64,000 nucleotides of DNA from Gammaproteobacteria bacterium (GTDB lineage: Bacteria > Pseudomonadota > Gammaproteobacteria > Ga0077536). The stretch lies in NCBI GenBank assembly GCA_016209015.1, contig JACQWY010000002.1:77622-141621 (forward strand). The letters are read 5' to 3'. Both the position numbers and the translations under genes were made by a program. This document shows, in pieces, positions 1,406 through 26,144 of this stretch. Within the stretch, counting starts at the first letter, position 1, and each line of letters begins with the position of its first letter. Below the pieces are notes generated by a model. It had not been told where the DNA came from, searched no databases, and was given only the letters and a program-made list of their open reading frames with translations.

Positions 1406-1819
1406 ATGGCGTTTTATGCATGGAACGACAGTTACGCGATGGGGATACCCCTCATCGACCGCCACCACCGGATGCTGGTGGGCTACGTCAACAAGCTCGC
1501 CGACGCGCTCGATCACGGCGCCGCCGACCAGATCGTGGGCGAACTGCTGAACGAGCTCGGCGTCTACACCCAGATGCATTTTTCCTACGAGGAGGCGCTG
1601 TTCAACGAGCACCACTATCCCGAGGAAGTCGAGCATCGCCACTATCACGAGAATCTCGTCGGGCAGGTGAAGGCCTTCCTGCAGCGCTATCAGGCCGGCT
1701 CAGACGGATTGAGCGTCGAGCTTCTCGAATTCCTGAAGCAGTGGCTCAACAATCACATCCTGCGCGAAGACATGGCCTACTCCGGCTTCCTCCGCGAGCG
1801 CATGGGGCGCAAGCACTGA
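1406..1819 (+). CDS. Bacteriohemerythrin (hemerythrin-like metal-binding domain protein)
   Basis: Internal ATG at 1406 of ORF 1283..1819. It is preceded by AGGAG and is in frame by mod-3 check. The His/Glu/Asp spacing is typical of hemerythrin: H..H...E, HF..EE, HH..H, H...ED (MAFYAWNDSYAMGIPLIDRHH...HFSYEEALF...HRHYHENL...NHILREDMAY). Confidence 0.8.
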   Translation: MAFYAWNDSYAMGIPLIDRHHRMLVGYVNKLADALDHGAADQIVGELLNELGVYTQMHFSYEEALFNEHHYPEEVEHRHYHENLVGQVKAFLQRYQAGSDGLSVELLEFLKQWLNNHILREDMAYSGFLRERMGRKH

Positions 1820-1861: not shown

Positions 1862-3100
1862 TCAGGCGGTCGGCGCCGCCGTCCGTCGCGCCCAGCGTTC
1901 GCGGATGTAGTCCAGGAGCTCCGTCGCGGAGGCAAAGCGGTCCTTGGGGTCTTTCGCCATCGTGCGGTCGATGATCGGTTGCAGCGCCGCGAACTCCTTC
2001 GGCAGCGTCGGCACCGGGTCGTTCGCATGCATGTACAGGAGCGCGATCAGCGAATTCGCCTGATACGGCTTCTCCCCCGTCAGCATCTCGAAGAAGATGG
2101 CGCCCAGGCTGTACAGGTCGCTGCGCGCATCGACCCCGGTCGCCGCGCCCTGCTCCGGGCTCATGTAGTACGGCGTTCCCAGCACCTCGCCCGGCATCGT
2201 CAGCGTCCACGACCACTCGAGCGCCCGCGAGACGCCGAAATCCATCAGCGCGATGCTGCGATCGGCCCGGAACATGATGTTCTGCGGTTTCAGATCACGA
2301 TGCACCACGCCCTGGCGGTGGACGTCCTCGAGCGCGATCGCGAGCTGGTAGAGGAAGCCGAGCGCGCGTTTCGGCGCGAGCGGCTTGCCGAGCAGCGGTT
2401 TCATGTCGCCGCCCGGGAAGTACTCCATCACGATGTACACGCTGTCGTCGGTGAAACCGTGCTCGTAGATGTGGGCGACGTGGTGGCTGTCGATTTTGGA
2501 GTGCAGATTGAATTCCTGCATGAAGCGCTTGAGCTGACCGTCGTCCTCGGTGAGCTCGCCATCGAGGATCTTGATCGCGACGGTCTCGTGCGTGTCCTGC
2601 TTGTCCGCGAGGTAGACCGTCGCCATACCGCCCCGACCAATCCGCTTCAGTACGTGATAGCCCTTGATGCGGACGTCCGCGGCTTCCGCCTCGGTCAGCG
2701 GCGCGAGCGGCTGCGTCAGGTCGAGATCCGAAAGCTCGACGCTCGTCGCGAGCGCTTCGTGCGTCGCGCGGTCCCGCGCCGCGAGCGCTTCCTTCATCGC
2801 TTCGGCGACGCTCTTGCGGTCAATCTGTCTGCTGTCGAGCACGGCCGCGCAGCGTACCCGCGCCACGTCGTCCGGCGCCGCCATACAGACGCCGATGCAG
2901 GCGGGAGTCGGCGGCCGCGGAAACGGCAGCTTCGACCCGAGATCGATGAACGCAACGTCGCAGCCCCGCGTCCCGCCCGCCAGTTCGAGCCAGGCCTGAG
3001 GATCGAACTCATCGACGTCGGCTTCCGGCCAGTCGATCGACAGCAGCTGCGCGAGCATGAGCCGCAGATCTTCATCGGGATGGACGATCGCAATGCGCAT
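1862..3100 (-). CDS. Hanks-type Ser/Thr protein kinase with an N-terminal ~150-aa non-kinase domain (possibly a degenerate receiver-like fold)
   Basis: ORF 1862..3205 on the minus strand. Kinase motifs: GRGGMATVY (P-loop), VAIKIL (catalytic Lys), HRDLKPQNIM, DFGVS, GTPYYMSPE. The probable start is MRIAIV at 3100. An alternative start at 3205 or 3187 cannot be excluded. Confidence 0.7.
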   Translation of the reverse strand: MRIAIVHPDEDLRLMLAQLLSIDWPEADVDEFDPQAWLELAGGTRGCDVAFIDLGSKLPFPRPPTPACIGVCMAAPDDVARVRCAAVLDSRQIDRKSVAEAMKEALAARDRATHEALATSVELSDLDLTQPLAPLTEAEAADVRIKGYHVLKRIGRGGMATVYLADKQDTHETVAIKILDGELTEDDGQLKRFMQEFNLHSKIDSHHVAHIYEHGFTDDSVYIVMEYFPGGDMKPLLGKPLAPKRALGFLYQLAIALEDVHRQGVVHRDLKPQNIMFRADRSIALMDFGVSRALEWSWTLTMPGEVLGTPYYMSPEQGAATGVDARSDLYSLGAIFFEMLTGEKPYQANSLIALLYMHANDPVPTLPKEFAALQPIIDRTMAKDPKDRFASATELLDYIRERWARRTAAPTA

Positions 3101-3368
3101 CGACGGGCCTGGTGACAAATCGGACGCCAAGTGTCCCTCCGGCCGGCGGCGATCGTCTACAGCGGACCGCACGATGCGCGCCCGCATCGGCTGCTTCTGC
3201 AACACGCGCTTGATCCAGGTCAGTCGCGGGGAACGGGATCACAGCGCGCGGCCCGGTCCTCAAGTCGATTTGCACGCTGGTCGATACCTTACCCGCGGCT
3301 GCCGTCATGGTGCAGGCGGATCCCTCTGCCGCGAAGTTCGAACAGGGAATGAAACACGGGAGGCCAGT

Positions 3369-3812
3369 GTGGGCGAGAAGTCCCCGACTGCCGGATACAA
3401 GATCCTCGTCATCGACGACAGCAACACGATCCGTCGAAGCGCCGAGATCACGCTGAAGCACGCGGGTTTCGAAGTGGTCCTCGCCGAGGACGGCTTCGAC
3501 GCGCTCGCGCAGATCGTCGATCACCATCCGGATCTCATTTTTCTCGACATCATGATGCCGCGCCTGGACGGTTATGCGACGTGCGGTCTCATCAAGCGCA
3601 ATCTCCAGTTCCGCGACACCCCGGTGATCATGCTCTCCAGCAAAGACAGCGTGTTCGATCGGGCGCGCGGCCGGCTGGTCGGCGCCAATGAATACCTGAC
3701 GAAGCCTTTCACCAAGGAGGGCCTGCTCGAGGCCGTCCGGGCGCATTTGGCCGCGCCGCATTCAACCGAGGAGAACCCGCATGTCCGTCAAGAGAGTACT
3801 GGTCGTCGATGA
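3369..3812 (+). CDS. pilG: Twitching-motility response regulator PilG (CheY-like single receiver)
   Basis: GTG at 3369 is preceded by GGGAGG. The REC domain reads KILVIDDSNTIRRSAEITLK...DLIFLDIMMPRLDGY...TPVIMLSSKD...YLTKPF and is almost co-linear with the P. aeruginosa PilG that I recall. The gene is first in the pilGHIJ-chpA order. Confidence 0.8.
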   Translation: MGEKSPTAGYKILVIDDSNTIRRSAEITLKHAGFEVVLAEDGFDALAQIVDHHPDLIFLDIMMPRLDGYATCGLIKRNLQFRDTPVIMLSSKDSVFDRARGRLVGANEYLTKPFTKEGLLEAVRAHLAAPHSTEENPHVRQESTGRR

Positions 3813-4146
3813 TTCCGCGACCGAGCGTCACATGTTGAGCGAGCTGCTCACGGCGCACGGTTACGAGGTGTTCACCGCCGAATCCGGCGAGGATGGCATC
3901 GAAAAGACCAAGCAGCTCAGGCCCGACCTCGTGCTCATGGACGTCGTCATGCCGGGACTCAACGGATTCCAGGCCACCCGCATGCTGACGCGTGACGACG
4001 CGACGAAGAACATTCCGGTCATCATGTGCACGACGAAATCGCAGGAGACCGACAAGGTGTGGGGCCTGCGGCAGGGCGCCGCGAGCTATGTCACGAAGCC
4101 GGTCGACGAGGGCGAGCTGCTCGAGCAGATCGCCGCGCTCAACTGA
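3781..4146 (+). CDS. pilH: Response regulator PilH (CheY-like)
   Basis: ORF track. REC domain reads VLVVDDSATERHML...DLVLMDVVMPGLNGF...IPVIMCTTKSQETDKVWGLRQGA..YVTKP. The gene overlaps the pilG 3' end by 32 bp. Confidence 0.8.
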   Translation: MSVKRVLVVDDSATERHMLSELLTAHGYEVFTAESGEDGIEKTKQLRPDLVLMDVVMPGLNGFQATRMLTRDDATKNIPVIMCTTKSQETDKVWGLRQGAASYVTKPVDEGELLEQIAALN

Positions 4147-4147
4147 C

Positions 4148-4660
4148 ATGGGCAAACGCACCAGCCTCGTCGAGTTCCAGCGCGAGTTGCTGGAACGCCT
4201 GAGCGTCGCGCCGCGCGGCGAAGCGCTCAATGCGCTGCTCGCCGTCGCGCTCGGTGACGAGCCCTGGCTCATCGGTCTCGGCGACATCTCCGAAGTGCTG
4301 CCGGTCCCGCCGATCGAGACCGTGCCGTGGACGAAACGCTGGCTGCAGGGCGCGGTGAACGTGCGCGGCCAGGTATACGGCGTGGTGGATCTCGCGGCGT
4401 TCGTCGGTGCCGGGGCAGCGGCCGCCGGCCCGGGCGCGCGCATCCTGCTCGTGCACCGGCGCATCGCCAACGCCTGTGCGCTGCTGGTACCGCGCGTCAT
4501 CGGACTGCGCAACCCGACCTCGTTCATCGCGGATCTCGCGATGCCGGGCGATGCGCCCTGGGTCCGAACCATTCACGTCGACGCGGAGAAGCAGCGCTGG
4601 TCGGAGCTCGATCTGCGTCGCCTCACGTCGCATCCCACTTTTCTCGAGGCCGCGCTGTAG
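4148..4660 (+). CDS. pilI: CheW-like coupling protein PilI
   Basis: ATG at 4148 is in frame within ORF 3992..4660. The CheW-like fold is LIGLGDISEVLPVPPIETVPWTKRWLQGAVNVRGQVYGVVDLAAF. The gene lies between pilH and the MCP gene. Confidence 0.7.
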   Translation: MGKRTSLVEFQRELLERLSVAPRGEALNALLAVALGDEPWLIGLGDISEVLPVPPIETVPWTKRWLQGAVNVRGQVYGVVDLAAFVGAGAAAAGPGARILLVHRRIANACALLVPRVIGLRNPTSFIADLAMPGDAPWVRTIHVDAEKQRWSELDLRRLTSHPTFLEAAL

Positions 4661-4711
4661 GCCGGGCTCCGGCTCCGCGCACAGCCCACCCGAACAACAC
4701 TGGAGGTTTTC

Positions 4712-6058
4712 ATGTCAGCGAACAACACTGCGCCGGCCGGCCAGAGCGGAAAGGACAGCGGCTCGTCCGGCGCCGGAGGCGGCAAGGTCGCCCATCTGTT
4801 CGGCGCGAAGAAGAAGAGCGGAACGCGCAGCGCGGCGCTCGGCTCCGCGCAGCTCCACATGCTCGCCGGCGCCCTCTGTGCAGGCGCGGTCGGCGTGTTG
4901 CTGTTCGCGGCGGCGGGCGCGGGCGTGACGGCGGGCTTCCTCGTCACGGCGGGACTCGCGATTGCGCTCGTCGGCAGCGGCGTCGCGGTACTCGCGAAGC
5001 TCTCCAAGGCGGCAGCCGCGGCGCAGAAGTCGCTCGAAGAGCAGACGGCGAAGCACGCGACGGAATCCCAGCGCAACCAGTCGGCGATCCTGCGTCTCCT
5101 CGACGACATGGGCGCGCTGGCCGATGGCGATCTGACCGTGAAGTCGAAGGTGACCGAGGACATCACGGGCGCGATCGCCGACTCCGTGAATTACACGGTG
5201 GGCGAGCTCCGCAGCCTCGTGACCCGCGTGAACGACGCTTCCGCGGAAGTGCTGCAGAAGACGACGGGCGCCGAAGCGCTCTCCGTCACGGTGCTCGAGG
5301 CCGCGCAGCGACAGGCCGACCAGATCAAGCTCGCCAGCACGCAGGTGATGGGCGTCGCGGACTCGGTGAAGGACGTCTCGAGCAAGGCGACGGACTCGGC
5401 GCGCGTCGCGGGGCGCTCACTCGAGGCGGCGGAAGCCGGCGGTGCCGCGGTGGAGAACTCCATCAAGGGCATGAACGAAATCCGCGAGAACATCCAGGAG
5501 ACCTCGAAGCGCATCAAGCGTCTCGGCGAGAGCTCGCAGGAAATCGGCGAAATCGTCGAGCTCATCTCCGACATCACCGAGCAGACGAACGTGCTCGCCC
5601 TGAATGCGGCCATCCAGGCCGCCGCGGCGGGTGAAGCGGGCCGCGGCTTCGCGGTGGTCGCCGAGGAAGTGCAGCGTCTGGCCGAACGATCCGGCGAAGC
5701 CACGAAGCAGATCGGCAATCTCGTGAAGACGATTCAGCGCGACACGCAGGACGCGGTGGCCGCCATGGAGCGCAGCACGGTCGGCGTGGTGGAAGGCGCG
5801 AAGCTCGCCGACGCGGCGGGTGATTCGCTGCGCCAGATCCGACAGGTGTCGAACGATCTCGCCCGCATCATCGAGGACATCTTCGGCAAGACGAAGGAAC
5901 AGGCCGTGGTCGCGGACGAAGTGGCGAACACGATGCAGTCGATCCTCGGCATCACGGACGAGAACACGCGGGGCACGATGCAGATGACGGAATCCGTCAC
6001 CCAGCTCGCGAGCCTCGCGAGCGAGCTCAAGCAATCGGTATCCGGATTCAAGCTCTAG
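4712..6058 (+). CDS. pilJ: Methyl-accepting chemotaxis protein PilJ
   Basis: ORF track. There is an N-terminal TM region. The MCP signalling domain with the highly conserved hairpin tip is LALNAAIQAAAAGEAGRGFAVVAEEVQRLAERS. SD GGAGG lies upstream of the ATG. Confidence 0.85.
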   Translation: MSANNTAPAGQSGKDSGSSGAGGGKVAHLFGAKKKSGTRSAALGSAQLHMLAGALCAGAVGVLLFAAAGAGVTAGFLVTAGLAIALVGSGVAVLAKLSKAAAAAQKSLEEQTAKHATESQRNQSAILRLLDDMGALADGDLTVKSKVTEDITGAIADSVNYTVGELRSLVTRVNDASAEVLQKTTGAEALSVTVLEAAQRQADQIKLASTQVMGVADSVKDVSSKATDSARVAGRSLEAAEAGGAAVENSIKGMNEIRENIQETSKRIKRLGESSQEIGEIVELISDITEQTNVLALNAAIQAAAAGEAGRGFAVVAEEVQRLAERSGEATKQIGNLVKTIQRDTQDAVAAMERSTVGVVEGAKLADAAGDSLRQIRQVSNDLARIIEDIFGKTKEQAVVADEVANTMQSILGITDENTRGTMQMTESVTQLASLASELKQSVSGFKL

Positions 6059-6074
6059 ACGGAGCGTACGCCCA

Positions 6075-9000
6075 ATGATCGCTCAAACGGACATGGACGC
6101 CCTGCGCATCGTCGCTCCGGAAATCGACCGGGTCCTCGCGCTGACCGCGTCCGCCCTGACCGACGGCGCCAACGCCGAGCTCGCGCGTCAGTGCGAGCGC
6201 GATCTGCATCGTCTGCGCGGGGCCTTCGAGATGGCGGCGGCGCCGGGACTCGCACGCTTCTGCGAATGCTTCACCGCGGGGTACTGCGCGAGCCTCGCCG
6301 ATCCCGCGAATCGCAGCCGCTGGAACGCGCTGCTCGAACGCGCGCTGGCCGCGCTCAAGCGCTGCGTCAGAGACGCCGAGCACAACGGTGCAGTGCAGTC
6401 CATGCTGCTCTTCCCGCTCTACGTGGACATGAAGCGCGCGCTCGGTGAGGACAAGGTCAGCGCGAGCGATCTGTACTATCCCGAGGTCGATGTCGAACGC
6501 AGCCGCGGCGAACCGGTCACTCTGCCTGCGCAGGACTCGACCGCGGTCGCGAAACTCGCCCGCGGCCGCTATCAGCGGGCACTGCTCGCCTGGCTGCGCG
6601 GCGACGGCGTAGCGCCGGCCGCGATGCTGCGGGCCGTGACGACGGTCGACCAGTTGTTCGGCGCGCAATCGAATTTCTGGTGGGTGGCCTGCGGCTTCCT
6701 CGACGGCATCCGGGCCGGCGGCTTCACCATAGACTCCCATCTCAAGCGCATCTGCGCGCGCATCGATCTGCAGATTGCCCGCATCTGCGACGGGGCGAAC
6801 CTCGTCTCCGACGCCCTGCTGCGCGAGATGCTGTACTTCATCGGCCGCTGCACGGTCGACACCACGCGGATCAGCGAACTGCGCGAGGCTTATGCGCTCG
6901 ACGACGACGCACGTAACGGCGCCGCGGAGAGCGACGATCCCGCGGCGCGTGCCGCGGCGCTGAGCGCGGTACATACCGCCCAGCGTACGTTGGAAGGCCT
7001 CGCTGGCGGCGGTGCCGGCGCGGAAGCGGCTTTCGATGCCGCGATCGAGCGGCTCAACGCCTGCATCGACACGCTGCGCGAGCCCGCAGTGAAGGCGGCG
7101 GGCAACGCCGTCGGTACCGAAGCGCAGGAGCTGCGCTCGGGCGGACGGAACTACGAGAAAGACGCCGTCTCGCTCGCCGGCCTGCTGCTCGCGCTCGAGC
7201 GGGTGCTCGACGAGCGCACCGCCCAGCCCGGCGCGACGGCCGAGCTCAATGCCCTGCTCGAAGGGGGAACCACGACCGGCGGCACGACGAACCGTCTCGA
7301 TGCAGCGCTCGGGCAGGAGATCCGCAAGAGTCTCAAGCAGGTCGAGCATGCACTCGAGAGCCTGACCGCGGCCGCCGTGCCGCGCGACGTCGCACCCGCG
7401 CTGAATCCGCTGCGCCGGGCCGGGGCCGCGCTCGCGATCGCGAGCCAGACCGAGGCCGCGCAACTGCTCGCGCACGCCGAAGGCCTGGTGCGCGAGCTCG
7501 CGGACTCGCCGACGCCCGAAACGCAAATCGAGACGCTCGCCGAATGCCTCGGCGGCGCCGAGTTGTTCGTCGAGGCCGCGTGCCGCGGCAGCAACGGTCG
7601 CGAGGTGATCCTGCCGCTGCTGCGCAAGCTCGGCCTCGCCCCTGCCGACGAGCCGCCCGGCGAGCCGGCCGCGACCCAGCCGGCGACGGTCGAACAAGCG
7701 CTCGCACTCGAACGTCGCGGCGTGCAGGACCTGTTGCACAACTGGCAGCGCTCGAGCGAACGCGTCGTCGATGAATTGAAGAACAACCTGCAGGCGATCC
7801 ACCAGGACGCGCTGCTCGTCGCCGATCGCGAAGTTCGCGAACGATCCGCGCACGCGCTGTCGCTGCTCCAGGCGGCGCCGCCGGCGATAGATCCGCAACT
7901 GCGCGACGCCGTCGCCGCCGTCGGCGGCGTGATGGGCGGCCGCGGCCAGGCGCCGGCGGCCGTCGACGTCGCTTCCGATCCCGAGGTGCTGGACGTCTAT
8001 CTCGAGGAAGCGCGCGAAGTGCTCGATACGGTACGTGCGCATCTCGCGAGCGACGCGCGCACGCCGGAGGGTCTGCGCGAAGTCCGCCGCTATTACCACA
8101 CGCTGAAGGGCAGCAGCCGCGTCGTCGGCCTCGTCCACATGGGCGAAGTGGCGTGGAGCGTGGAACGCCAGTTGAATGCCTGGCTCGATGCCGACCTCGA
8201 CGCGACGCCGGCATTGCTCGCCGCCGTCGGCGCGGTCGCCGAAGCGTTCGCGGGCTGGGTGGAGAATCTCGCCGATCACGGCAGCACCGGCGTCGATGCC
8301 GCGGCACTGCAGGCCGGGATTGACGCCTTGACGCCGGCCAGCGCCACCGCGCCGGAGCCCGTCCCGGCGGCGCAAGCCGACGTCGAACCCGAGCCCCCCG
8401 CCGCGGGCGCGGCGCCGAATCCCGATCACGTGCGCCTCGGTCCCGAGTTCACCGTCTCCCGCGCGCTCCTCGACATCTTCCGCTCCGAAGCCGCGCAGCA
8501 CCTCGCTACCCTGCGCACGGACGCCGACTCGGCCGCGCCGGGCGATACCGTGCGGCGCACCGCGTTGCGCGCCGCCCATACGCTGGCCGGGATCGGGCGC
8601 ACCGTACGCATCGACGCCGTCGCGGGACTCGCCGCCGCGCTCGAAGCGTGGCTCGAGCGCATGCTCGACGCCGGTGCGGCGATGGAGGAGGAGTGCCGCG
8701 CGCTGTTCGTCGAAGCCGTCGACAGTCTGGGCGCGATGCTCGCGACCATCGAGGGCGAAGCGCTGCCCATCGCCGACACCGCGCTCCGCGACAAGCTCGA
8801 AGCCGCGGCTGCCGCGGTCGTCGCCGCCGAGGAAGCGGCATTCGTCGAACAGGAGATCGCGATCCCGGCCGCGCTGCTCGAGGCGGCGTTCATGCAGGGC
8901 GTGAATCCGGAAATCCTGCCCGTCGTGCTGGACGAGGCCCACGACCTGGGCGCCGCGATTGGGCGCGAGCTCGTCGGCTGGCGCGAGTCGCCCGACGAGG

Positions 9001-11105
9001 AAGCGCACGGCGAAGCGGTCGTACGCCATCTGCACACGCTGAAGGGCTCGGTCCGGGCCGCGGGCGCGATGCAGCTCGGCGACTTCGCGCATGCGAGTGA
9101 AGCGCGCATTCAGACCATGCTGCTCAACGAGACCGCGGATCCCGAGTGGCTCGAAGCGCTGCAGCAGTGGTTCGACACGTGGCTCATCGCAATCGACGCG
9201 CTGAAGTCGGCGCGTGCCGGCCAGCTCGGCGGCGCGGCGCAACGAAGCGTCGCCGAAGGTCAGCGCCCCGCGCCGCGCGCGACCGGCCAGCTACGGGTCG
9301 CGACGGAAACGGTCGAACACCTCATCGAAGCCTCGAGCGAGCTCGGGCTCACCCGCGCCCGTACCGCGAACGAAGTGGACGGGATCGGTCAGGGTGTCGC
9401 GGATCTCAAGGAATCGATCGTGCGCCTGCGTCAGCAGATCCGCGAAGTCGAGATCCAGGCGGAATCGCAGATGAGCGCCCGCCAGACGCAGATCGAGGAA
9501 GACAACGCCGCCTACGATCCGCTCGAGTTCGACCGCTTCACGCGCCTGCAGGAGCTCACGCGTCAGATGGCGGAATCGCTGCACGATGTCGTGACGGTGC
9601 AACAGAACCTGCAACGCCACCTAGACGACGTCGAGGAAGTCCTGGAGCGCCAGGGCTCGCTCAGCCGGGACATGCACGGCGCGCTCATGCGCATCTATGC
9701 CGTGCCGTTCGGGACGGTGACCGAACGTCTCGAGCGCGTGGTGCGGCAGGCCACGTCCGCGCTCGACAAGGCCGTGCGCCTCCACGTGCGCGGCGCCGAG
9801 GTCGAGCTCGACCGCGGCATTCTCGATCGCATCGTCGGACCGCTCGAGCACCTGCTGCGCAATTCTATCGCGCACGGCATCGAAGCCGGCGCGGAACGTC
9901 TCGCCGCGGGCAAGCCCGCGGCCGGCCGGCTCGACGTCGTGGTGCGCCAGGATGCGAACCGCGTGACGATCGAAGTGAGCGACGACGGGCGCGGTCTCGA
10001 CCTCGCGAGGATCCGCGCCAAGGCGGAGACCGCGGGCATCGTCGCGCCGGGCGCGGAGCTCACGGAGCAACAGTTGCGCGCGCTGATCTTCGCGCCCGGA
10101 CTCAGCACCGCGGAGTCGGTGACGGAGGTGTCGGGGCGCGGCATCGGCATGGATGCCGTGCGCAATGCCGTGCAGACGCTCGGCGGGACCATCGACATCC
10201 GCACGGAAGCAGGCCGCGGGACGACGTTCCTGGTGCACCTGCCGCTCACCGTCGTGGTCGTCTCCGTCGTCACCGTGATGGTCGGCGGGCGTCAGTTCGC
10301 GATCCCCGCGAATCTCGTCCGGCAGGCGCAGCGGATGAACGGGACGGCGCTGCGCGAGCTCTACGCCCGCGGCGAATCGGCGTGGCAGGACGAGCGCTAT
10401 CCGTTCCACCACTTGAGCGAGCTCATCGGCAAGCGCGTCGCGCCCACCGTGAACGAGCGCGGCAACATGGTGCTCTACCTCGGCGCGGACGAACGCCGCG
10501 TCGCGATTCACGTCGACAGCCTGTCCGTCACCCAGGACGTGACGCTGAAAGACATGGGCCCGCAGCTCGGCCGCGTGCCGGCTCTCGCCGGTGCGAGCGT
10601 CACGGGCGCCGGGCGGGTGCTGCTCGTGATCGATCCACTGCAGATGGTGAGCCGCGTGGCCGCGGCGAAGCGCGAGGACGACAAGACGAAAGGCGCCGCA
10701 CGGCGCCAGCCGCTCGTCCTCATCGTCGACGACTCGATCACCGTGCGCAAGGTCACGAGCCGGTTGATGGAACGCGCGGGCTATCGCGTGGCGACGGCGA
10801 AAGACGGTGTCGAGGGTCTCGAACAGATGCACGCGAAACGGCCGGACATCGTGCTGCTCGACATCGAGATGCCGCGCATGGACGGCTTCGAGTTCACGAA
10901 GCACGTCCGCAGCGAGGCAGCGACGGCTGCGCTGCCGATCGTGATCATCAGCTCGCGTACGGCGGACAAGCACCGTCAGCACGCGGAACGTCTCGGCGTG
11001 AATCTCTTCCTCGGCAAGCCGTACGAGGACGACCGGCTCCTCGCGGCGGTGGCGTCTCTGGTCGGTGGTGAAGGAACCGACGCGCTGCCGCGCACCGGCA
11101 CGTGA
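6075..11105 (+). CDS. chpA: ChpA-type multi-Hpt CheA histidine kinase with C-terminal receiver (Pil-Chp system)
   Basis: 1676 aa. Several Hpt-like blocks: HTLKGSSRVVGL, HTLAGIGRTVRID, HTLKGSVRAAGAM. HATPase_c region: GRGIGMDAVRNAVQTLGGTIDIRTEAGRGTTFLVHLPLT. A CheW-like domain is followed by a REC domain (PLVLIVDDSITVRK...DIVLLDIEMPRMDGFE). Confidence 0.85.
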   Translation: MIAQTDMDALRIVAPEIDRVLALTASALTDGANAELARQCERDLHRLRGAFEMAAAPGLARFCECFTAGYCASLADPANRSRWNALLERALAALKRCVRDAEHNGAVQSMLLFPLYVDMKRALGEDKVSASDLYYPEVDVERSRGEPVTLPAQDSTAVAKLARGRYQRALLAWLRGDGVAPAAMLRAVTTVDQLFGAQSNFWWVACGFLDGIRAGGFTIDSHLKRICARIDLQIARICDGANLVSDALLREMLYFIGRCTVDTTRISELREAYALDDDARNGAAESDDPAARAAALSAVHTAQRTLEGLAGGGAGAEAAFDAAIERLNACIDTLREPAVKAAGNAVGTEAQELRSGGRNYEKDAVSLAGLLLALERVLDERTAQPGATAELNALLEGGTTTGGTTNRLDAALGQEIRKSLKQVEHALESLTAAAVPRDVAPALNPLRRAGAALAIASQTEAAQLLAHAEGLVRELADSPTPETQIETLAECLGGAELFVEAACRGSNGREVILPLLRKLGLAPADEPPGEPAATQPATVEQALALERRGVQDLLHNWQRSSERVVDELKNNLQAIHQDALLVADREVRERSAHALSLLQAAPPAIDPQLRDAVAAVGGVMGGRGQAPAAVDVASDPEVLDVYLEEAREVLDTVRAHLASDARTPEGLREVRRYYHTLKGSSRVVGLVHMGEVAWSVERQLNAWLDADLDATPALLAAVGAVAEAFAGWVENLADHGSTGVDAAALQAGIDALTPASATAPEPVPAAQADVEPEPPAAGAAPNPDHVRLGPEFTVSRALLDIFRSEAAQHLATLRTDADSAAPGDTVRRTALRAAHTLAGIGRTVRIDAVAGLAAALEAWLERMLDAGAAMEEECRALFVEAVDSLGAMLATIEGEALPIADTALRDKLEAAAAAVVAAEEAAFVEQEIAIPAALLEAAFMQGVNPEILPVVLDEAHDLGAAIGRELVGWRESPDEEAHGEAVVRHLHTLKGSVRAAGAMQLGDFAHASEARIQTMLLNETADPEWLEALQQWFDTWLIAIDALKSARAGQLGGAAQRSVAEGQRPAPRATGQLRVATETVEHLIEASSELGLTRARTANEVDGIGQGVADLKESIVRLRQQIREVEIQAESQMSARQTQIEEDNAAYDPLEFDRFTRLQELTRQMAESLHDVVTVQQNLQRHLDDVEEVLERQGSLSRDMHGALMRIYAVPFGTVTERLERVVRQATSALDKAVRLHVRGAEVELDRGILDRIVGPLEHLLRNSIAHGIEAGAERLAAGKPAAGRLDVVVRQDANRVTIEVSDDGRGLDLARIRAKAETAGIVAPGAELTEQQLRALIFAPGLSTAESVTEVSGRGIGMDAVRNAVQTLGGTIDIRTEAGRGTTFLVHLPLTVVVVSVVTVMVGGRQFAIPANLVRQAQRMNGTALRELYARGESAWQDERYPFHHLSELIGKRVAPTVNERGNMVLYLGADERRVAIHVDSLSVTQDVTLKDMGPQLGRVPALAGASVTGAGRVLLVIDPLQMVSRVAAAKREDDKTKGAARRQPLVLIVDDSITVRKVTSRLMERAGYRVATAKDGVEGLEQMHAKRPDIVLLDIEMPRMDGFEFTKHVRSEAATAALPIVIISSRTADKHRQHAERLGVNLFLGKPYEDDRLLAAVASLVGGEGTDALPRTGT

Positions 11106-18900: not shown

Positions 18901-21723
18901 CTTGTTCTGCACGTCGTAGGCCGTCGTTGCAGAGCTCACGTTGTCGGGATTGGCGAGATCGTAGCGATCCATGATCGCCATGGCGGCGGCACCGCCACCG
19001 CTCATCGTCGCGGTGGCCTTGGCCTGCGTGCCGCCCGCCGGCGGATCGATGGTCACCTTGAGGGGCGCGGCGAGGACCTGCGGCAAACCGGCGGCGGCCA
19101 GCGTCACGCCGGAGACCTGGCCCGTGGCCGAGACCGTCGCCGTGGCGGCGACGGAGGTGACGGGCACGTCGTGGGCATCGGTCAGCGTGACCGCGGGCGG
19201 GGACGCCTGGCTGTAGCCCGTGCCGCGCACCGTCACGACCACCCGGCTCGGCACCTGGCCGAACGTCACGGTCGGGGCGGCGGTATAACCCGCGCCGGCA
19301 CTGCTGAGCGAGAGGCCCTGCACGATGCCGGGATGCGCGGGATCCATGATGGCCGTGGCGGCGGCCTGCGTGCCGCCGGCCGGCGGCGCGGCGAGCGTCA
19401 CCGGCGGCATGAACGTGTAACCCGTACCGCCGCCGCTCAACGCGAAGGAGTTGACACGCAGGGCTTCACCCGCGACCGGGGTATCCGTCGCGTAGAACTT
19501 CGGCAGGTTCGCGGAACCCGTGAAGATCGACGCGTAGTTGTCGCCGTAGGTCGTGCCGAGTGCGTCGTTATAGGCGATCTGGCCCGCGACCGGCGGATCC
19601 TGCACGGCCTTGTACGCCGCGTGCAGCGCGTCGTTGAGCGCCACGGCATCGAGCGGTGCGGCCGGCGCGGCGGCCCGGACGTGGATCTGCATCACCGTAC
19701 GCGTATTCGGACCGTAGCCGGGCTTCGTGCTCGGCGCGCCGCCGGCATCGGTCTGATCACCGTTGCCGGTGTAGTAGTCGCTACGCGGGTCGAAGCCCGG
19801 GTTCGGCGCCGGCCCATCGTTGTAGAGGATCAGCGTCTTGCCCGCGAACTGCGAGAAGTCGACCACGACGTCCGCCCGTTCCGCCGGTCCGAGGTAGAGG
19901 GCGTGGCAGTCCGGATAGCAGGCCTGCGAGGGATCCTCGTTCTGCGAGACGTTCAACACGGTGGCGGTGCGGCGGTTGTAGTCGTAGTTCTCCGGCACGG
20001 GCTTGACCGTGCTGACATTCGGCATCAGGCCCGCTTCATTGCCGATCTGGTACATGACCGGACCGACGGTCGTCGGATCGGGTACGCCACCCGCGCGGGA
20101 GTCGGTCGGCCAGTTGTACGGGAAGCCCGGGGTTGCCGTGGCCGGCACCATCTTGACCTCGGTGCAGTCCTCGATGTCGGTCGGCGCGTTCGGGCTGCCG
20201 TCGCAGAGCTTCAGGCCGGGGCTGTTGAGCGGATCCTCGGGGTTCGTCGTGTTCTTGTCGGCGGCGACGTAGAATCCGAGGTTCAGGAAGCGGTCGTTGC
20301 CCGCGGCGAGGATGCGGAAGCGATAGGCCTTCGGATCCACGGTCATCGTCGGATACGCGGTACCGTTGACGACCGAGGTGTCCATGAACGCTTCCGGCGT
20401 CGTCGTCTCGTCACCGTAGGCACCGGTGGGCAGCGCGTACTGCGCCGGGAACACCGGCCAGAACCACGGCCCCCAGTCCCAGCGGCCGACGGCGTTCGCG
20501 CCGCCCTTCTGGTTCGGATCCTGGTTCGTCTCGTAGACGTGCGGGAACCACAGGTCGCCGGGCTGGCCCCAGGTCATCGGATCCCACAGCGCGTCCTGCG
20601 TGTCGATGTCCGCCGGTACGAACGTCTTGTCCTGGATGACGAGCGGGATCTGCTCGCCGGGCAGACCGCCCGCGGCGAGGATGGTTTCCGCCTGCGGATC
20701 CGTCAGCACGTAACCCGCAGCTTCGCCCGCATACACGTTCAGGCGCGTGAGGCCCGAGGTGTGGTCGTGGTAGAACATGAAACGCGCGCTCTGGTCGTTC
20801 GTCCAGTACAGCGTCGCGGAGCCCTCACCCGGATCGACCATGTCGGGCACGTTCTGGAAGCTCTGACCCTTCTTGTAGTGCGCACCCGTATCGCCGACCG
20901 GCACGGTCCACTGGTGCGGCGTACCATCGGAAATCCACGGCGTGAGACCGCCATGGAGGTGAATCTCCGCGCGGTTCTCCGTGAACATCGGAGCGTCGGG
21001 GCCATCGGGACCGAAGCCCGCACCCGGCAGGGTGTGGTCGACCGGGATGAACAGGTCGCCATTGCGTTTGCCGGTTTCGGGATCGAACTTGCCGATCGGC
21101 AACAGGTTGCTGTATTTCATGCGCACCGGCTTGCCCTTCGTCGCGAGGATGATCGGGCCGAGGTAGTGCGGCTTCGCGTAGGCATAGACCTGCTTGCCGT
21201 CGACCATGATCGCGTTGCCGTCGAGGTAGGTCAGCGGATAGCACTCGCTGCCCGCGCTCTTCGCGCCACAGTCGCCGGCCGCGGTCGCCGCCGCGTCGAT
21301 CTGCACGTAGCCGCGCAGCGTCGTCGCCTTCGGCAGATCGCTGTGCATTTTCTCGGTGTACTCGACGATGCCGATCCAGTAGTAATCCGAACCCGGATAG
21401 CTCGCCGTGTCCGCCGCGGCAAGCGGGAGAGACTGGCCGAGGTTGTTCACGCCGGCGTTCGTCGAGGGCGCGAGGCCCGGCACGCTGGACAGCGTGTCGA
21501 CGAACTTGCGGAGCGCCGTACCGGACTGGTGAGCGTTGCCCGCCCAGTCCGTGTAGTCGCCGCTGGGGCTGTTCGCGAAATACGTGGGGACCGGGAACTC
21601 GAGGCCTCCCAGATCCATGCCGCTGCCGAGCCCGGCGCCCGCGAATGCGGAATCCATGGCGGCGGGCAGCGTCGCGAGTAGGAATAGCGACCCTATCCGG
21701 GATCGCGTTTTGCGTCGGCTCAT
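15952..21723 (-). CDS. Giant multicopper oxidase (~1924 aa): N-terminal cupredoxin/MCO catalytic region followed by ~8 FN3/Ig-like repeats. MnxG/MofA-like candidate Mn(II) oxidase.
   Basis: Start MSRRKTRSRIGSLFLLATLPAAMDSAFA at 21723. The complement of ATG was verified, and GGAGGA lies upstream. Copper-ligand motifs: IHLHGG and FMFYHDHTSG (N-terminal HxH pairs), HPVHFHLV and WHCHILGHEENDFM (C-terminal HxH and HCH..H..M, the type 1/trinuclear site). The C-terminal ~800 aa are tandem ~90-aa repeats rich in Thr/Ser/Ala with conserved W/Y positions, typical of FN3 domains. Confidence 0.8.
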   Translation of the reverse strand: MSRRKTRSRIGSLFLLATLPAAMDSAFAGAGLGSGMDLGGLEFPVPTYFANSPSGDYTDWAGNAHQSGTALRKFVDTLSSVPGLAPSTNAGVNNLGQSLPLAAADTASYPGSDYYWIGIVEYTEKMHSDLPKATTLRGYVQIDAAATAAGDCGAKSAGSECYPLTYLDGNAIMVDGKQVYAYAKPHYLGPIILATKGKPVRMKYSNLLPIGKFDPETGKRNGDLFIPVDHTLPGAGFGPDGPDAPMFTENRAEIHLHGGLTPWISDGTPHQWTVPVGDTGAHYKKGQSFQNVPDMVDPGEGSATLYWTNDQSARFMFYHDHTSGLTRLNVYAGEAAGYVLTDPQAETILAAGGLPGEQIPLVIQDKTFVPADIDTQDALWDPMTWGQPGDLWFPHVYETNQDPNQKGGANAVGRWDWGPWFWPVFPAQYALPTGAYGDETTTPEAFMDTSVVNGTAYPTMTVDPKAYRFRILAAGNDRFLNLGFYVAADKNTTNPEDPLNSPGLKLCDGSPNAPTDIEDCTEVKMVPATATPGFPYNWPTDSRAGGVPDPTTVGPVMYQIGNEAGLMPNVSTVKPVPENYDYNRRTATVLNVSQNEDPSQACYPDCHALYLGPAERADVVVDFSQFAGKTLILYNDGPAPNPGFDPRSDYYTGNGDQTDAGGAPSTKPGYGPNTRTVMQIHVRAAAPAAPLDAVALNDALHAAYKAVQDPPVAGQIAYNDALGTTYGDNYASIFTGSANLPKFYATDTPVAGEALRVNSFALSGGGTGYTFMPPVTLAAPPAGGTQAAATAIMDPAHPGIVQGLSLSSAGAGYTAAPTVTFGQVPSRVVVTVRGTGYSQASPPAVTLTDAHDVPVTSVAATATVSATGQVSGVTLAAAGLPQVLAAPLKVTIDPPAGGTQAKATATMSGGGAAAMAIMDRYDLANPDNVSSATTAYDVQNKAIQELFEPFYGRMNATLGVELPFTSALTQTTIPLNYIDPTTETIPQGQVQIWKITHNGVDAHPVHFHLVNVQLINRVGWDGTIKPPEANEVGWKETVKMNPLEDVIVAVKAVAPKTPFGQPRSVRTDDPSQEVGVTTGFTQIDPQTNNPLLVQNRLEDFDNEYVWHCHILGHEENDFMRPFVMDTKASVVAPTAPGTLSATADAQKIDLTWQDPTPATLVEDKPANLGNPMNEIGFMVQMQPITGYNGDEPILDANAWQTVSTAIANTESASIERATLTPNTDYAFRVGAYNSAQQGPMTPYSDPKTSIKPTAWSQALLQLTPPGTFTLTLGTVNSSSVALSWTSSQNATSYQVEDGFAADALADVNASLTDLNSVITGLAANTTYFFDVVAKHGSSIHSNTVSATTDAVPASFEAARAGDVTASAVTLRWANANPNLSALQKVEIARNGDVVATLTGAQILAADTYTDAGLAANAAFSYAVTVTGANGNAFTVSKDVTTAPAIATFTQTHTATSVVLSWTYPANANTAGLNATISRDGTPVASGLTGTTTWTDENVSANSDYAYTVTISGADGTADASLNVTTAPQPVSALQIVNGSLTPWAVSLDWTNDNPNAVTFEVDRTPDMTSTVAAGPYADTSLTPGNAYSYAVTVVGKDGVQKSAPVNINVTAVSLAIADLNAVSAPGKTQVDLTWSNLSFSVDSYSAVRCTGTQTFGTCTSGRTTFSAAAGSPWADTTAAPGTTYTYFAQPVVAGHPGLPYSNAKTLTTLRVPSTPTMAGPNNIQSTSMTIRWNGSSAAVNYTVQQQQCANTVASPCDGNGWTTLNNAATGTSLPTTGLQPATRYSFRVRANAWGSSAFAATPSSATTLVAPVTVSDSFTFPATQSTTNSTQTVSFNIRTNDTPSSASGGTVTVGTLNSVNGGATATLTCAPTSGSCNIALTPVGTGLTPAQRQVQKRGTYTFTYQLNYGGLTSAPATATVTLN

Positions 21724-21949
21724 CTCTCGAATCCTCCGATTCAGACCTCGGTTGCCGCGGGCTGCCAGGGGCCGCCGGCGGGGCGTTTCGTCTGGCTCCC
21801 CACCCGCCGATCGGGGTGCGATCCGTTCGCCCGAGAGGTCCGGGCGGGACACGCACCACGGGCACGGAGCCCAGGTGTGCGGCAGGATGTCGCATGGCGA
21901 TCCCGCATTGCGATTCGGTCAAACGCGCGGGGGGCGGAGGGGAATTCGT

Positions 21950-22130
21950 GGTAGGGAAAGACTGTAGAGGCCCGCGCTATGTCACTGAATTAGCACGGCT
22001 AGTGATTTAGATTCGCATTACGGGGATCAATTTACTGTCATTCGCCCTACTTTCGGACGATTTTGCCCCGGCGCGGTGCCACGGGGCGTTGATGAACAAT
22101 AATGCATTGCATTTGCATCACGGGATCCCG
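21950..22130. promoter_or_regulatory. AT-rich divergent control region between the MCO operon and the hemerythrin-GGDEF gene, containing a TGCAT direct-repeat cluster
   Basis: Local GC is far below the window average. AATGCATTGCATTTGCAT sits at about 22101-22118. The region lies between divergent starts at 21723 (minus) and 22375 (plus). Confidence 0.3.
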
Positions 22131-22374
22131 GCTCGGCGGGCATTCAAAACTATTGTTTCCCGGCCGCGCCCGCTGCGCTGCCCGCGAATTGACGGACGTC
22201 AAGGTTCGGAACGCCCGCGCGGGGTTTGATGCATCCTGGAGCCGCAGGGCGGGGCCGGCCGCGGGTCCGGTGAGGCTGCGGGCCGCTACGAGCGCAGGGA
22301 GGAAGGAACGCTCGAATGATCAGACCACTCGCCGGCTGTCGTTGACAGGACCGCTGCCACGGGCTCACGCATCC

Positions 22375-23568
22375 ATGGAAACCTTCGTCTGGGACCGCCA
22401 CTTCACCACCGATCTCGACACGGTGGACGATCAGCACCACGCGCTCGTCGATTTGATCAACCGGCTCGGCGAGCACCTCGTCGCGGGCCCGGCCGACGAC
22501 ACCGATCTCGAAGCGATATTCGGGCAGCTCGCCGAATACGCGATCTACCACTTCGCCGAAGAAGAGAATCTGATGGCCGCCTCGGGCGTCGACCCGCGGC
22601 ACGTCGACGAGCACAAGGACTTGCACCGGCGCTTCGTCAACCAGGTCCAGAGCATGTGGCACGCGCGGCGCACGATCGCGACCGCCACGACCGTCCTCCA
22701 CGAATTCCTCGCCGCCTGGCTGAGCTTCCACATCCTCGGCGAGGATCAGGCGATGGCGCGCCAGATCAAGCGCATCGCCGAGGGAGAATCGCCGGGCGTC
22801 GCCTACGCGCGCGAGGCGGACCCGGTGGACAACGCGACGACGGCGCTGCTCGGCGCGCTGCGGAATCTCTATCACGTGCTGTCAGCGCAGAACGACGATC
22901 TCGTCATCGCGAATCGCAATCTCGAACAGCGCGTCGCGGAACGTACCGAGGCACTGGCACGCGCGAACGCCGCGCTCACCGACGCAAATCGTCAGCTCGA
23001 GAAGGCCTCGCGCACCGACGGCCTGCTCGGTATCGCGAACCGCAAATACTTCGACGAGAAGCTGCGCGAAGAATGGCAGCGCGGCCGGCGGGAACGTCAT
23101 CCGCTGGGGCTCATCATGCTCGACGTCGATCACTTCAAACGCTACAACGACAGCTACGGTCACATCGCCGGCGATGCCTGCCTGCGCGCCGTCGCGGGGG
23201 CGGCCGGCGGGGCGCTGAAACGTCCGGGCGACCTCATCGCGCGCTACGGCGGGGAGGAGCTCGTCATCATGCTGCCGCACACCGACGTCGCGGGCGCGCT
23301 CGCCGTTGCGCGACAGGTCCTCGAACACATTCACGCGCTCGCCCTGCCGCACTGTGATTCACCCGTTGCGCCGCACGTCACCGTGAGCATGGGCGTCGCG
23401 TCGCGATTCGCGGATACCGCGCGCAGCGCGGAATCGCTCATTGCCGCGGCGGATGCCGCGCTCTACGCGGCGAAGGAAGCCGGCCGCAATCGCATCTGCG
23501 GCGCGACGCCGCACGATCCGCAAGCCGGCGCGGCTATGCCGGACCAGCCGACCGAGGGGCTGCGCTGA
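22375..23568 (+). CDS. Bacteriohemerythrin-GGDEF diguanylate cyclase (putative O2/NO/redox-sensing DGC)
   Basis: ATG at 22375 is in frame within ORF 22102..23568. N-terminal hemerythrin: HHALVDLINRL...AIYHFAEEENLM...HVDEHKDLHRRF...FLAAWLSFHILGEDQAM. C-terminal GGDEF: GLLGIANRKYFDEKL...LIMLDVDHFKRYNDSYGHIAGDACL...RYGGEELVIML (GGEEL active site). Confidence 0.8.
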   Translation: METFVWDRHFTTDLDTVDDQHHALVDLINRLGEHLVAGPADDTDLEAIFGQLAEYAIYHFAEEENLMAASGVDPRHVDEHKDLHRRFVNQVQSMWHARRTIATATTVLHEFLAAWLSFHILGEDQAMARQIKRIAEGESPGVAYAREADPVDNATTALLGALRNLYHVLSAQNDDLVIANRNLEQRVAERTEALARANAALTDANRQLEKASRTDGLLGIANRKYFDEKLREEWQRGRRERHPLGLIMLDVDHFKRYNDSYGHIAGDACLRAVAGAAGGALKRPGDLIARYGGEELVIMLPHTDVAGALAVARQVLEHIHALALPHCDSPVAPHVTVSMGVASRFADTARSAESLIAAADAALYAAKEAGRNRICGATPHDPQAGAAMPDQPTEGLR

Positions 23569-25214: not shown

Positions 25215-25262
25215 AATTGTACCATATAGTATATTCTCATACTGTTTGGTAGATACGGCGGC
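25215..25262. promoter_or_regulatory. Candidate TetR operator: AT-rich inverted repeat ACCATATAGTATAT-TCTCATACTGTTTGGT in the divergent region
   Basis: The half-sites AGTATA and TATACT-like are read directly. This is the only AT-rich patch between the ligase start (25180) and the TetR start (25449). Confidence 0.35.
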
Positions 25263-25448
25263 CGCGGTTCGGCTCGCGCGAGGGCCCGGAAAGCCCGGGT
25301 GCTGCCGATATGGCGGCCCGCTTGCGCAGCGCGCTGGCGGCATCGACGGCGCAGTGCTAGTGTGCAGTCCCGTCGTGCTGCGTCGCGCACTCCACCGCCG
25401 GGGGGCGGCCGGGTGAGAACGCGGCGCGGCGCCGGAACCGATGAGACC

Positions 25449-26144
25449 ATGAAAGAAGAAATCAAAGAATACAAACGCGAGCGCATCCTCGAAGCCGCGA
25501 TCGCGCTGTTCCACGAGCGCGGGTTCGCGGGCACGTCCGTCGAAGCCGTCGCCGACCGCCTCGGCGTCACGAAGCCCTTCATCTATACGTATTTCGAGAA
25601 CAAGCACGCATTGCTGGTCGCCATCTTCCTGCAGGCGACCGAACGGCTGCTCGCGCTCGTCGCCGCGGCGCTCGCCGAAGAGGCCCCGCCGGACCGTCAG
25701 CTCGCGAACCTCGTGCACGCCTTCGCACGCGAGAACATGGACGTGCGGCTCATCTCGCGCGTGTTCCTGCAGGAAGAGAAGCACCTCGACGAGAAATTCC
25801 TCAAGCGCATCCGTCAGGCGCAGAAGAAGTTCGACACCCAGCTCACCGAGCTCATCGCGCGCGGGGTCGAATGCGGACTGTTCGAGGTCGAGGATCCCGC
25901 GGTCGCGGCGCTCGCGATCACGGGCATGATCCGTTGGATCCAGCGCTGGTATCGCGAGGACGGCCGACGCGAGGCCGAAGATCTCGCGCGCATCATGTCG
26001 GAGCTCGCCTTGAACCTCGTGCGCTGCAAATCCACCGCCGCGCCCGCGAGGGCGGTGCGGACCCCGACGTCGCGCCGCACCAAGGCCGTGACGAAAGAGA
26101 AGGCACCACCCGCGCGACGCGTGAGGCGCAAGACGAACGCCTGA
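25449..26144 (+). CDS. TetR/AcrR family transcriptional regulator
   Basis: ATG at 25449 is in frame within ORF 25299..26144. N-terminal HTH: RERILEAAIALFHERGFAGTSVEAVADRLGVTKPFIYTYFENKHALL. Confidence 0.8.
   Translation: MKEEIKEYKRERILEAAIALFHERGFAGTSVEAVADRLGVTKPFIYTYFENKHALLVAIFLQATERLLALVAAALAEEAPPDRQLANLVHAFARENMDVRLISRVFLQEEKHLDEKFLKRIRQAQKKFDTQLTELIARGVECGLFEVEDPAVAALAITGMIRWIQRWYREDGRREAEDLARIMSELALNLVRCKSTAAPARAVRTPTSRRTKAVTKEKAPPARRVRRKTNA

Follow-up and report, generated by a model that had tools for sequence, protein, structure and literature searches.

A bacteriohemerythrin-diguanylate cyclase gene with candidate operators of its own, divergent from a MofA-type multicopper oxidase operon

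Results

Layout of the locus and its divergent spacer

The subject of this study is a gene for a hemerythrin-GGDEF diguanylate cyclase, together with the DNA ahead of it, in a 64-kb stretch of a gammaproteobacterial genome (positions 77,622 to 141,621 of contig JACQWY010000002.1, assembly GCA_016209015.1); we refer to this whole stretch as the window and count all coordinates from its first letter. The cyclase gene and the gene for a MofA/OmpB-type multicopper oxidase (MCO) stand head-to-head, separated by 651 bp (Table 1), a divergent layout that had been recognized in an earlier reading of the letters alone (hereafter, the sequence-only reading) and that was upheld here, with the two start codons placed at ATG 21723 on the minus strand (MCO) and ATG 22375 on the plus strand (cyclase). 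The same reading had described the entire ~650-bp region as the least GC-rich of the window, which is true of its AT-rich core only and not of the spacer as a whole. That is, the spacer has a GC content of 64.8% compared to ~68% for the window, and several other stretches of 300-650 nt fall below it, whereas the 45% GC at 21943-22042 and the 51% GC at 21959-22158 represent the window minimum at the 100-200-nt scale.

The only close relative of the cyclase in the collections searched is encoded on a 2.5-kb JGI metagenome contig (L013), whose protein is 88% identical to that of the window and whose layout is the same (MCO, spacer, cyclase, AMP-binding gene); a scan of the genome-contig collection for close relatives gave a best match of at most 43% identity, i.e., no species-level representative was found there. 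Identity of the spacer to L013 amounts to 95% at 21724-21950, 92% at 21951-22160, and 82%, with indels, at 22161-22374, compared to a divergence of 22% at third codon positions of the cyclase gene. Judged against this third-position divergence, the MCO-proximal 500 nt of the spacer appear constrained, while the final 150 nt ahead of the cyclase ATG, with their lower identity and indels, appear to be evolving close to neutrality. Runs of at least 30 nt that are identical in the two sequences are found at 21718-21767, 21866-21934, 22049-22081, and 22092-22138. An RNA element in the spacer was ruled out based on an Rfam E-value scan of 21500-22600, which returned no match, and on the folding of the two leaders, which revealed no excess structure (z=-0.6 for the MCO leader and z=+2.3 for the cyclase leader). 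A sigma-54 promoter was also rejected, the spacer having no credible GG-N10-GC match and the matches in the window occurring at chance level.

Table 1. Features of the cyclase-oxidase locus, in window coordinates
Feature	Position	Strand	Basis or remark
MofA/OmpB-type multicopper oxidase (MCO), neighboring gene, 1923 aa	15952..21723	-	Pfam Cu-oxidase_2 and fn3
Divergent spacer between MCO and cyclase, 651 bp	21724..22374		Distance between both start codons
Conserved 69-nt block	21866..21934	-	100% identical in L013; 143-211 nt upstream of MCO ATG
AT-rich core of spacer	21943..22158		GC 0.45-0.51 vs. ~0.68 for the window
Predicted sigma-70-type promoter P1 for the cyclase	22076..22103	+	-35 GTGCCA (22076-22081), 16-nt spacer, -10 AATAAT (22098-22103)
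TGCAT cluster, imperfect palindrome ATGCAT-N5-TTGCAT; candidate NsrR-like repressor operator	22102..22118		Over -10/+1 of P1
Perfect CRP/FNR-type palindrome TTGACGGACGTCAA; candidate activator site	22189..22202		Zero mismatches to TTGAY-N4-RTCAA
Possible FNR-type promoter P2, -10 element TTTGAT	22225..22230	+	Inferred from the letters only
Cyclase gene, hemerythrin-stalk-GGDEF, 397 aa	22375..23568	+	Pfam, NCBIfam, conserved N-terminus
Bacteriohemerythrin four-helix bundle, residues 1-135	22375..22779	+	Ligand alignments, AlphaFold2 (AF2) model
Single 61-residue helix from sensor to cyclase, residues 153-213	22831..23013	+	AF2; aligns with WspR stalk
GGDEF catalytic domain, residues 214-376	23014..23502	+	WspR 3BRE E=1e-43; Foldseek
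RxxD I-site (RPGD), five residues ahead of GGEEL	23221-23232	+	
GGEEL active-site motif, residues 292-296	23248-23262	+	

Architecture of the cyclase

The cyclase gene is contained in a long plus-strand open reading frame (ORF; 22102..23568), and its start at 22375 was set by an N-terminus, METFVWD, that is conserved in 115 homologs. An N-terminal extension from ATG 22102 was ruled out by this conserved start and by indels in L013 that break the frame; accordingly, 22102-22374 is non-coding in the cyclase frame. The protein matched the Pfam families Hemerythrin (residues 13-129, E=6e-12) and GGDEF (residues 214-373, E=8e-46), and scored above cut-off against the NCBIfam models bact_hemeryth (86.3 bits; cut-off, 84) and GGDEF (160.8 bits). 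The N-terminal H-HxxxE-H-HxxxH-HxxxxD ligand set of the hemerythrin fold is complete, with all seven di-iron ligands present (H21, H59, E63, H80, H84, H119, and D124) in columns that are invariant or nearly so in family alignments of 28 and 43 sequences. In the AF2 monomer model (pLDDT 89.8), the helices of the bundle span residues 15-36, 42-69, 74-96, and 104-135, and the linker helix runs uninterrupted between the bundle and the alpha/beta GGDEF domain. This linker helix also aligns with the stalk of a GCN4-WspR fusion and is presumed to form a dimeric coiled-coil stalk.

The GGEEL motif stands in the context RYGGEELVIM, and a second catalytic-domain motif, DVDHFKRYND, is also in place. The position at which GGEEL has Leu for Phe is not catalytic. 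A motif census of 120 relatives revealed GGEEL in 82, GGEEM in 14, GGEEI in 13, and GGEEF in 4 of them, with RxxD present in 119; hence, GGEEL should not be viewed as degenerate here, given that most relatives carry the same motif. More than 6000 database proteins were matched, the best 120 of which all had the hemerythrin-GGDEF (Hr-GGDEF) architecture, and the best relatives came mainly from Rhodocyclales-type Betaproteobacteria (Sulfuritalea, Georgfuchsia, and Sulfuricella). Judging from these matches, the cyclase is a typical representative of the bacteriohemerythrin-diguanylate cyclases, a large family that has already been characterized, and the view of the sequence-only reading that a bacteriohemerythrin is fused to an active-looking GGDEF domain agrees with Pfam, the di-iron ligands, and the catalytic motifs alike. 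The stand-alone hemerythrin that had been noted elsewhere in the window (1406..1819) was recovered as well (Pfam, E=1.6e-14).

A predicted cyclase promoter overlapped by a TGCAT dyad

A consensus scan of both strands of 21600-22500 identified P1 as the only promoter-like site, with 0.1 such sites expected in shuffled sequences. Both P1 hexamers are unchanged in L013, and five substitutions are located at 22082-22091, within the promoter spacer; this is what a genuine promoter would be expected to show, with hexamers that are kept while the sequence between them varies. The cluster of TGCAT repeats to which the sequence-only reading had drawn attention (AATGCATTGCATTTGCAT) was found at exactly the position reported, 22101-22118. 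The cluster starts in the final two bases of the P1 -10 element and reaches ~+8, and it is located ~380-395 nt upstream of the MCO ATG.

Three copies of TGCAT in 16 nt are unique for that 5-mer in the window, which has 42 copies of it, and the dyad ATGCA-N7-TGCAT is the sole exact instance in the window. Aligned as aATGCAT-tgcat-TTGCATc, the cluster shows one mismatch in 12 core positions to the NsrR consensus gATGyAT-N5-ATrCATc (Rodionov et al., PMC1274295), and 0.07 matches to ATGYAT-N5-ATRCAT with at most one mismatch are expected per window. A classical member of the NsrR regulon is DnrN/YtfE, a di-iron protein resembling hemerythrin (PMC1274295); hmp/nor targets were not seen in the window.

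In terms of conservation, the cluster is unchanged in L013, its sole close relative, being part of the 47-nt identical run at 22092-22138, but it is absent upstream of 77 distant Hr-GGDEF orthologs, where TGCAT is not enriched (0.37 vs. 0.29 copies per 200 nt). The sole NsrR-like, TGCAT-rich match among these 77 loci is ATGCATCTTGCATGCTT, with one mismatch, at -44 (~2957-2973) of locus L089. As a separate observation, this locus has no MCO nearby. A family-wide motif upstream of the Hr-GGDEF orthologs was also considered and rejected, the enriched k-mers resembling neighboring coding sequence.

In the best reading of these data, the TGCAT cluster is most likely the operator of a dimeric repressor that acts on the cyclase promoter; that the repressor is NsrR specifically, as the consensus might suggest, we consider doubtful. 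The TetR regulator encoded at 25299..26144 was rejected as the protein that binds the dyad, given that its own divergent spacer has a different AT-rich palindrome and no TGCAT. This TetR/AMP-binding spacer contains, at 25215-25250, the AT-rich quasi-palindrome TACCATATAGTATATTCTCATACTGTTTGGTA, which is likely the TetR operator and is unrelated to TGCAT. Similarly, a direct-repeat family, ATTYGCATYAC (at 22011, 22040, and 22111), was discarded, as its first two copies are mutated in L013.

A CRP/FNR-type dyad and a possible second promoter

The second operator candidate, TTGACGGACGTCAA, was not part of the sequence-only reading. It is the sole zero-mismatch match to TTGAY-N4-RTCAA in the window and is located 80 bp downstream of the TGCAT cluster and 180 nt from the cyclase ATG. 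In L013 it is kept within an island (22182-22202) that is flanked by substitutions. Boxes with at most one mismatch were found upstream of 6 of the 77 independent orthologs compared to 1.35 expected (P ~0.003), a comparison in which -35-like TTGAC hexamers are not excluded by the control. Class II geometry at this dyad would place a transcription start near 22237. The possible -10 element of such a promoter, TTTGAT, is a weak match to the consensus (four of the six positions), and the TCTGAT of L013 keeps the same four matching positions. An FNR half-match at 22089 (TTGATGAACAATAA) was set aside because it is not kept in L013. Elsewhere in the window, a second FNR-like box with one mismatch (TTGATCCAGGTCAG) is located at 3210-3223, between a Ser/Thr kinase gene (1862..3205, minus strand) and a chemosensory cluster (described below).

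The oxidase operon and probable upstream elements of its own

The MCO ATG at 21723 is preceded, 9 nt upstream, by a GGAGG Shine-Dalgarno sequence and opens a signal-peptide-like N-terminus (MSRRKTRSRIGSLFLLATLPAAMDSAFA); the JGI start call for the MCO on the related contig is the same. The NCBI model of the oxidase (1901 aa) starts at 21657, 22 codons further downstream, and the 21723 start restores the signal-peptide-like N-terminus that this model lacks. In addition to Cu-oxidase_2, Pfam detected fibronectin-III and purple-acid-phosphatase-N domains in the protein. The gene is the first of a minus-strand operon, mofA-hyp-mofB(FKBP)-mofC(cyt c)-SCO1, that extends down to ~11784, the genes after the MCO encoding a 237-aa protein without family match, an FKBP isomerase, a 603-aa cytochrome c, and a SCO1/SenC copper chaperone. 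An identical gene order, MCO-FKBP-cytochrome c-(hypothetical)-SCO1, was found in Leptothrix cholodnii SP-6 (CP001013) and in five metagenome loci (L097-L101).

A 69-nt block that is shared with L013 reads, on the minus strand, TTGACC followed by the tandem 13-mers GAATCGCAATGCG / GGATCGCCATGCG, and probably represents the MCO promoter or a regulatory element of the MCO. In distant mofA-type upstream regions we observed a palindrome, ACCCTACC-N4-6-GGTAGGG, followed ~25 nt later by a GGGTTTYG...GAGTG...TTYGYCGC block, with the palindrome located, relative to the MCO ATG, at -164 (L097), -233 (L098), -178 (L099), and -159 (L100). CCCTAC is present in six of the seven mofA-type upstream regions, a count that was obtained in 0 of 2000 shuffles, and the palindrome may be the site of the operon's own regulator. 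The window has a single CCCTAC half-site only (21951-21956, minus strand), at the matching distance of -233. No TGCAT dyad or cluster was found upstream of the other mofA-type genes. Because these regions are without the TGCAT dyad and have motifs of their own in common, separate control elements are favored over a shared one; that is, the oxidase seems to be served by upstream elements of its own, which are conserved separately and lie closer to its start codon.

Next to the tail of the oxidase operon lies a Pil-Chp-like chemosensory cluster (3057-11105) that encodes two receiver proteins, CheW, a methyl-accepting chemotaxis protein (MCP), and a CheA of 1676 aa that has three Hpt matches and, at its C-terminus, a receiver; a Che-like cluster likewise adjoins mofA in L. 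cholodnii. In the loci of the relatives, the mofA-type cluster is followed by a HisKA_3 kinase and pseudopilin genes of the type II secretion system (T2SS).

Conservation of the cyclase-oxidase pairing

The next relatives of the cyclase (66-67% identity) are flanked by DUF2252 or RpiA genes and by hydrogenase genes, and no MCO was found near the Hr-GGDEF gene in any of 79 other loci within 3 kb or more (77 of these loci were from metagenomes, with 3-kb flanks). Likewise, none of six mofA-type operons had an Hr-GGDEF gene nearby; these operons are preceded by SLT and HisKA_3 kinase genes or by a chemotaxis cluster. The functional coupling to the oxidase operon that the sequence-only reading had proposed is thus without comparative support, the pairing being confined to the window and the near-identical contig L013, and the head-to-head position of the cyclase with the MofA-type oxidase operon is, on the loci compared, a lineage-specific arrangement.

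One further locus (L102) proved to come from the same sample as the window and was discarded. What looked like residual synteny of GGDEF, AMP-binding, and mofA genes in L098 and L099 was also rejected, as the proteins concerned are no orthologs of the window proteins (23% identity). In these two Rhodocyclales-type mofA loci (L098, 185-3227; L099, 1-2242), a REC-GGDEF (receiver-GGDEF) gene and an acetyl-CoA-synthetase-like gene are located 4-5 kb upstream of the oxidase.

Discussion

We favor, with moderate confidence, the hypothesis that the locus encodes a cyclase of the type of Vibrio cholerae Bhr-DGC (see below), the gene of which has its own promoter or promoters and candidate O2/NO-responsive operators that serve the cyclase gene alone, while its adjacency to the oxidase is specific to the lineage. 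The enzyme would be a soluble, probably dimeric protein of bacteriohemerythrin-coiled-coil-GGDEF architecture, and in its sequence the di-iron site and the GGDEF active site are both complete and an RxxD site for product inhibition is present. By analogy with the V. cholerae homolog, the reduced, diferrous center would favor the synthesis of cyclic di-GMP (c-di-GMP), and oxidation by O2 would turn synthesis down, with the signal presumably passing from the di-iron center via the 61-residue stalk helix. At the transcriptional level, the AT-rich core of the spacer would hold the cyclase gene's own promoter(s). A dimeric repressor may bind at ATGCAT-N5-TTGCAT, over the -10/+1 region of P1, with NsrR, an NO-sensing member of the Rrf2 family, providing the closest published consensus, and the CRP/FNR-type box could drive a second promoter that is activated at low O2 or by NO.

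It is important to note that several observations weigh against this hypothesis. P1 implies a leader of 265 nt, and no recognizable Shine-Dalgarno sequence was found ahead of the cyclase ATG at 22375. Little weight can be placed on the fact that the TGCAT cluster is conserved, since this is based on one close relative only (L013, ~94% spacer identity), and most of 21724-22228 is as conserved in this relative as the cluster itself. No Rrf2/nsrR gene was found among the ~50 ORFs scanned in the window, nor was a second NsrR-like box or a CRP/FNR regulator gene found in the window, and NsrR-like boxes were not enriched upstream of the 77 orthologs. Further, the resemblance to the NsrR consensus is in itself unsurprising, given that it was found post hoc and that hundreds of consensus sequences have been published. 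Finally, the L013 cyclase (protein P0002, L013 808-1950) is without 17 aa directly after GGEELVI, which reflects either a deletion that inactivates the enzyme or an artefact of assembly, and this makes selection on cyclase activity in the lineage uncertain.

Alternatively, the TGCAT cluster might have no regulatory role of its own and represent a slippage-type repeat, or the -10/initial transcribed sequence of an AT-rich promoter, which is the same in L013 through recent divergence. As a repeat, the cluster is unremarkable because triple clusters of some 5-mer are common in the window (15 observed vs. ~7 expected), a point that also counts against its being an operator. Consistent with this alternative, the flanking 500 nt are 92-95% identical to L013 anyway, the cluster is missing in all more distant ortholog promoters, and there is no cognate regulator gene nearby. 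However, the cluster is part of the longest identical run (47 nt) of the AT-rich core, beside a 10-nt patch with five substitutions; its dyad symmetry is spaced as in a known class of operators, and its -10/+1 position is typical of repressors. Hence, we consider a cluster without function possible but rather unlikely, and continue to favor an operator of the cyclase gene.

The sequence-only reading had gone further and proposed that one regulator at the TGCAT repeats co-controls the oxidase operon and the cyclase, coupling O2 status, c-di-GMP/biofilm formation, and oxidase expression. In support of this proposal, the 651-bp spacer common to the divergent genes shows stronger conservation in L013 than neutral sites do, and in Pseudomonas resinovorans c-di-GMP raises Mn(II) oxidation, although via peroxidases and not MCOs (PMC9765421). 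The two Rhodocyclales-type loci mentioned above, which have an unrelated REC-GGDEF gene several kilobases upstream of a mofA-like gene, could also be viewed as a parallel, but the GGDEF and AMP-binding genes of L098 are no orthologs of the window genes. Against the proposal, the cluster is remote from the MCO ATG and sits on top of a promoter prediction that is directed toward the cyclase; the adjacency is missing in the 79 Hr-GGDEF and six mofA-type loci; and the upstream regions of other mofA-type genes do not have the cluster and share other motifs, including the CCCTAC palindrome. The repeats as the site of a shared regulator were therefore not sustained by our analysis, and we regard such co-control as improbable.

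We give even less credence to a more elaborate scheme, a two-level O2/NO gate in which NsrR-like repression and FNR/DNR-type activation of the cyclase gene would be combined with di-iron redox control of the enzyme, and the resulting c-di-GMP would act on the expression or secretion of the adjacent Mn/Fe oxidase and on the matrix, the whole being a local circuit that arose from the lineage-specific joining of the two loci. The possibility that ATG 22092 opens a 45-aa His-rich peptide (MNNNALHLHHGIPARRAFKTIVSRP..., 22092-22229), with the TGCAT repeats as its codons, can be dismissed as highly improbable based on the substitution pattern and GC content at third codon positions (GC3): L013 has an insertion of 3 nt that leaves the frame and the stop codon intact, and the first two substitutions are synonymous, but only three of the nine substitutions are at third codon positions (chance level), GC3 is ~58% vs. 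80-93% in the genes of the window, the C-terminal half varies freely, the ATG is upstream of the predicted P1 start, and there is no JGI call for this ORF on L013.

If the operator assignments hold, the cyclase locus would represent a compact case of a redox-sensing cyclase that is itself wired transcriptionally to O2/NO regulators. Being located next to an enzyme system that has been implicated in Mn/Fe oxidation, it would then provide a useful test case for how metal oxidizers link the production of their oxidase to a biofilm lifestyle at oxic-anoxic interfaces. With the link to the oxidase unsupported, the main yield is the correct annotation and two operator candidates, together with a concrete model of the cyclase promoter, that is, P1 under an NsrR-like dyad and a possible P2 served by the FNR-type box.

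Comparison with known systems

Among characterized proteins, Bhr-DGC of V. cholerae (VC1216, Q9KSP0) is a soluble dimer with an N-terminal bacteriohemerythrin and a C-terminal GGDEF domain (PMC9388753), and the window protein is likened to it by domains and motifs, having the same two domains along with the full ligands and catalytic motifs. Bhr-DGC auto-oxidizes within a minute with no detectable O2 adduct, its diferrous form is ~10x as active as the diferric form, and its overexpression leads to biofilm (PMC9388753). The term "O2/NO-binding" used earlier for the hemerythrin domain of the window is loosely correct only, since the homolog senses redox state and forms no stable O2 adduct (PMC9388753), and "redox/O2-sensing" seems the better label. 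The clade of the window protein is beta/gamma-proteobacterial and has a GGEE[LMI] motif, as opposed to GGEEF, with relatives in Rhodocyclales, Sulfuritalea, and Georgfuchsia at 55-67% identity.

The closest solved hemerythrin is that of the Desulfovibrio vulgaris chemoreceptor DcrH (DcrH-Hr, 2AVK/2AWC; E=2.5e-11), with which the seven Fe ligands align. As in the window protein, a sensor module is joined to a signaling output; however, the hemerythrin of DcrH is C-terminal and the output is an MCP, and an O2 adduct can be observed for DcrH but not for Bhr-DGC. The GGDEF domain of WspR (PA3702) is 44-45% identical to that of the window (Foldseek rmsd [root-mean-square deviation] of 1.4 A over 165 residues), and WspR and other stalk-GGDEF cyclases (DgcB, DgcR, and SiaD) have a long helical stalk before the GGDEF domain and an RxxD I-site, as is the case here. 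The sensor of WspR-type cyclases, in contrast, is a receiver domain, where the window protein has a hemerythrin.

For the oxidase, a mofA-mofB-mofC / OmpB cluster has been described for metal oxidizers and Geobacter (PMC5566968), and the Leptothrix mofABC and Geobacter OmpB clusters share with the window a giant secreted Fn3-bearing MCO, an FKBP, a ~600-aa cytochrome c, and SCO1. They differ in what surrounds them: SLT and HisKA_3 kinase genes come before, and T2SS genes after, the mofA operons of the relatives, whereas a divergent cyclase comes before that of the window.

With respect to the candidate operators, known NsrR sites resemble the TGCAT dyad in half-site and spacing, apart from the single core mismatch, and in the overlap of -10/+1 that is found in repressor sites, while the upstream regions of orthologous cyclase genes, unlike that of the window, do not have the box. 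The core TTGA-N6-TCAA of the FNR/ANR/DNR box (TTGATnnnnATCAA) is matched by the second dyad, which is also a perfect match to the HcpR consensus (TTGACnnnnGTCAA), and hemerythrin-like genes are frequent in HcpR regulons according to the literature on this regulon.

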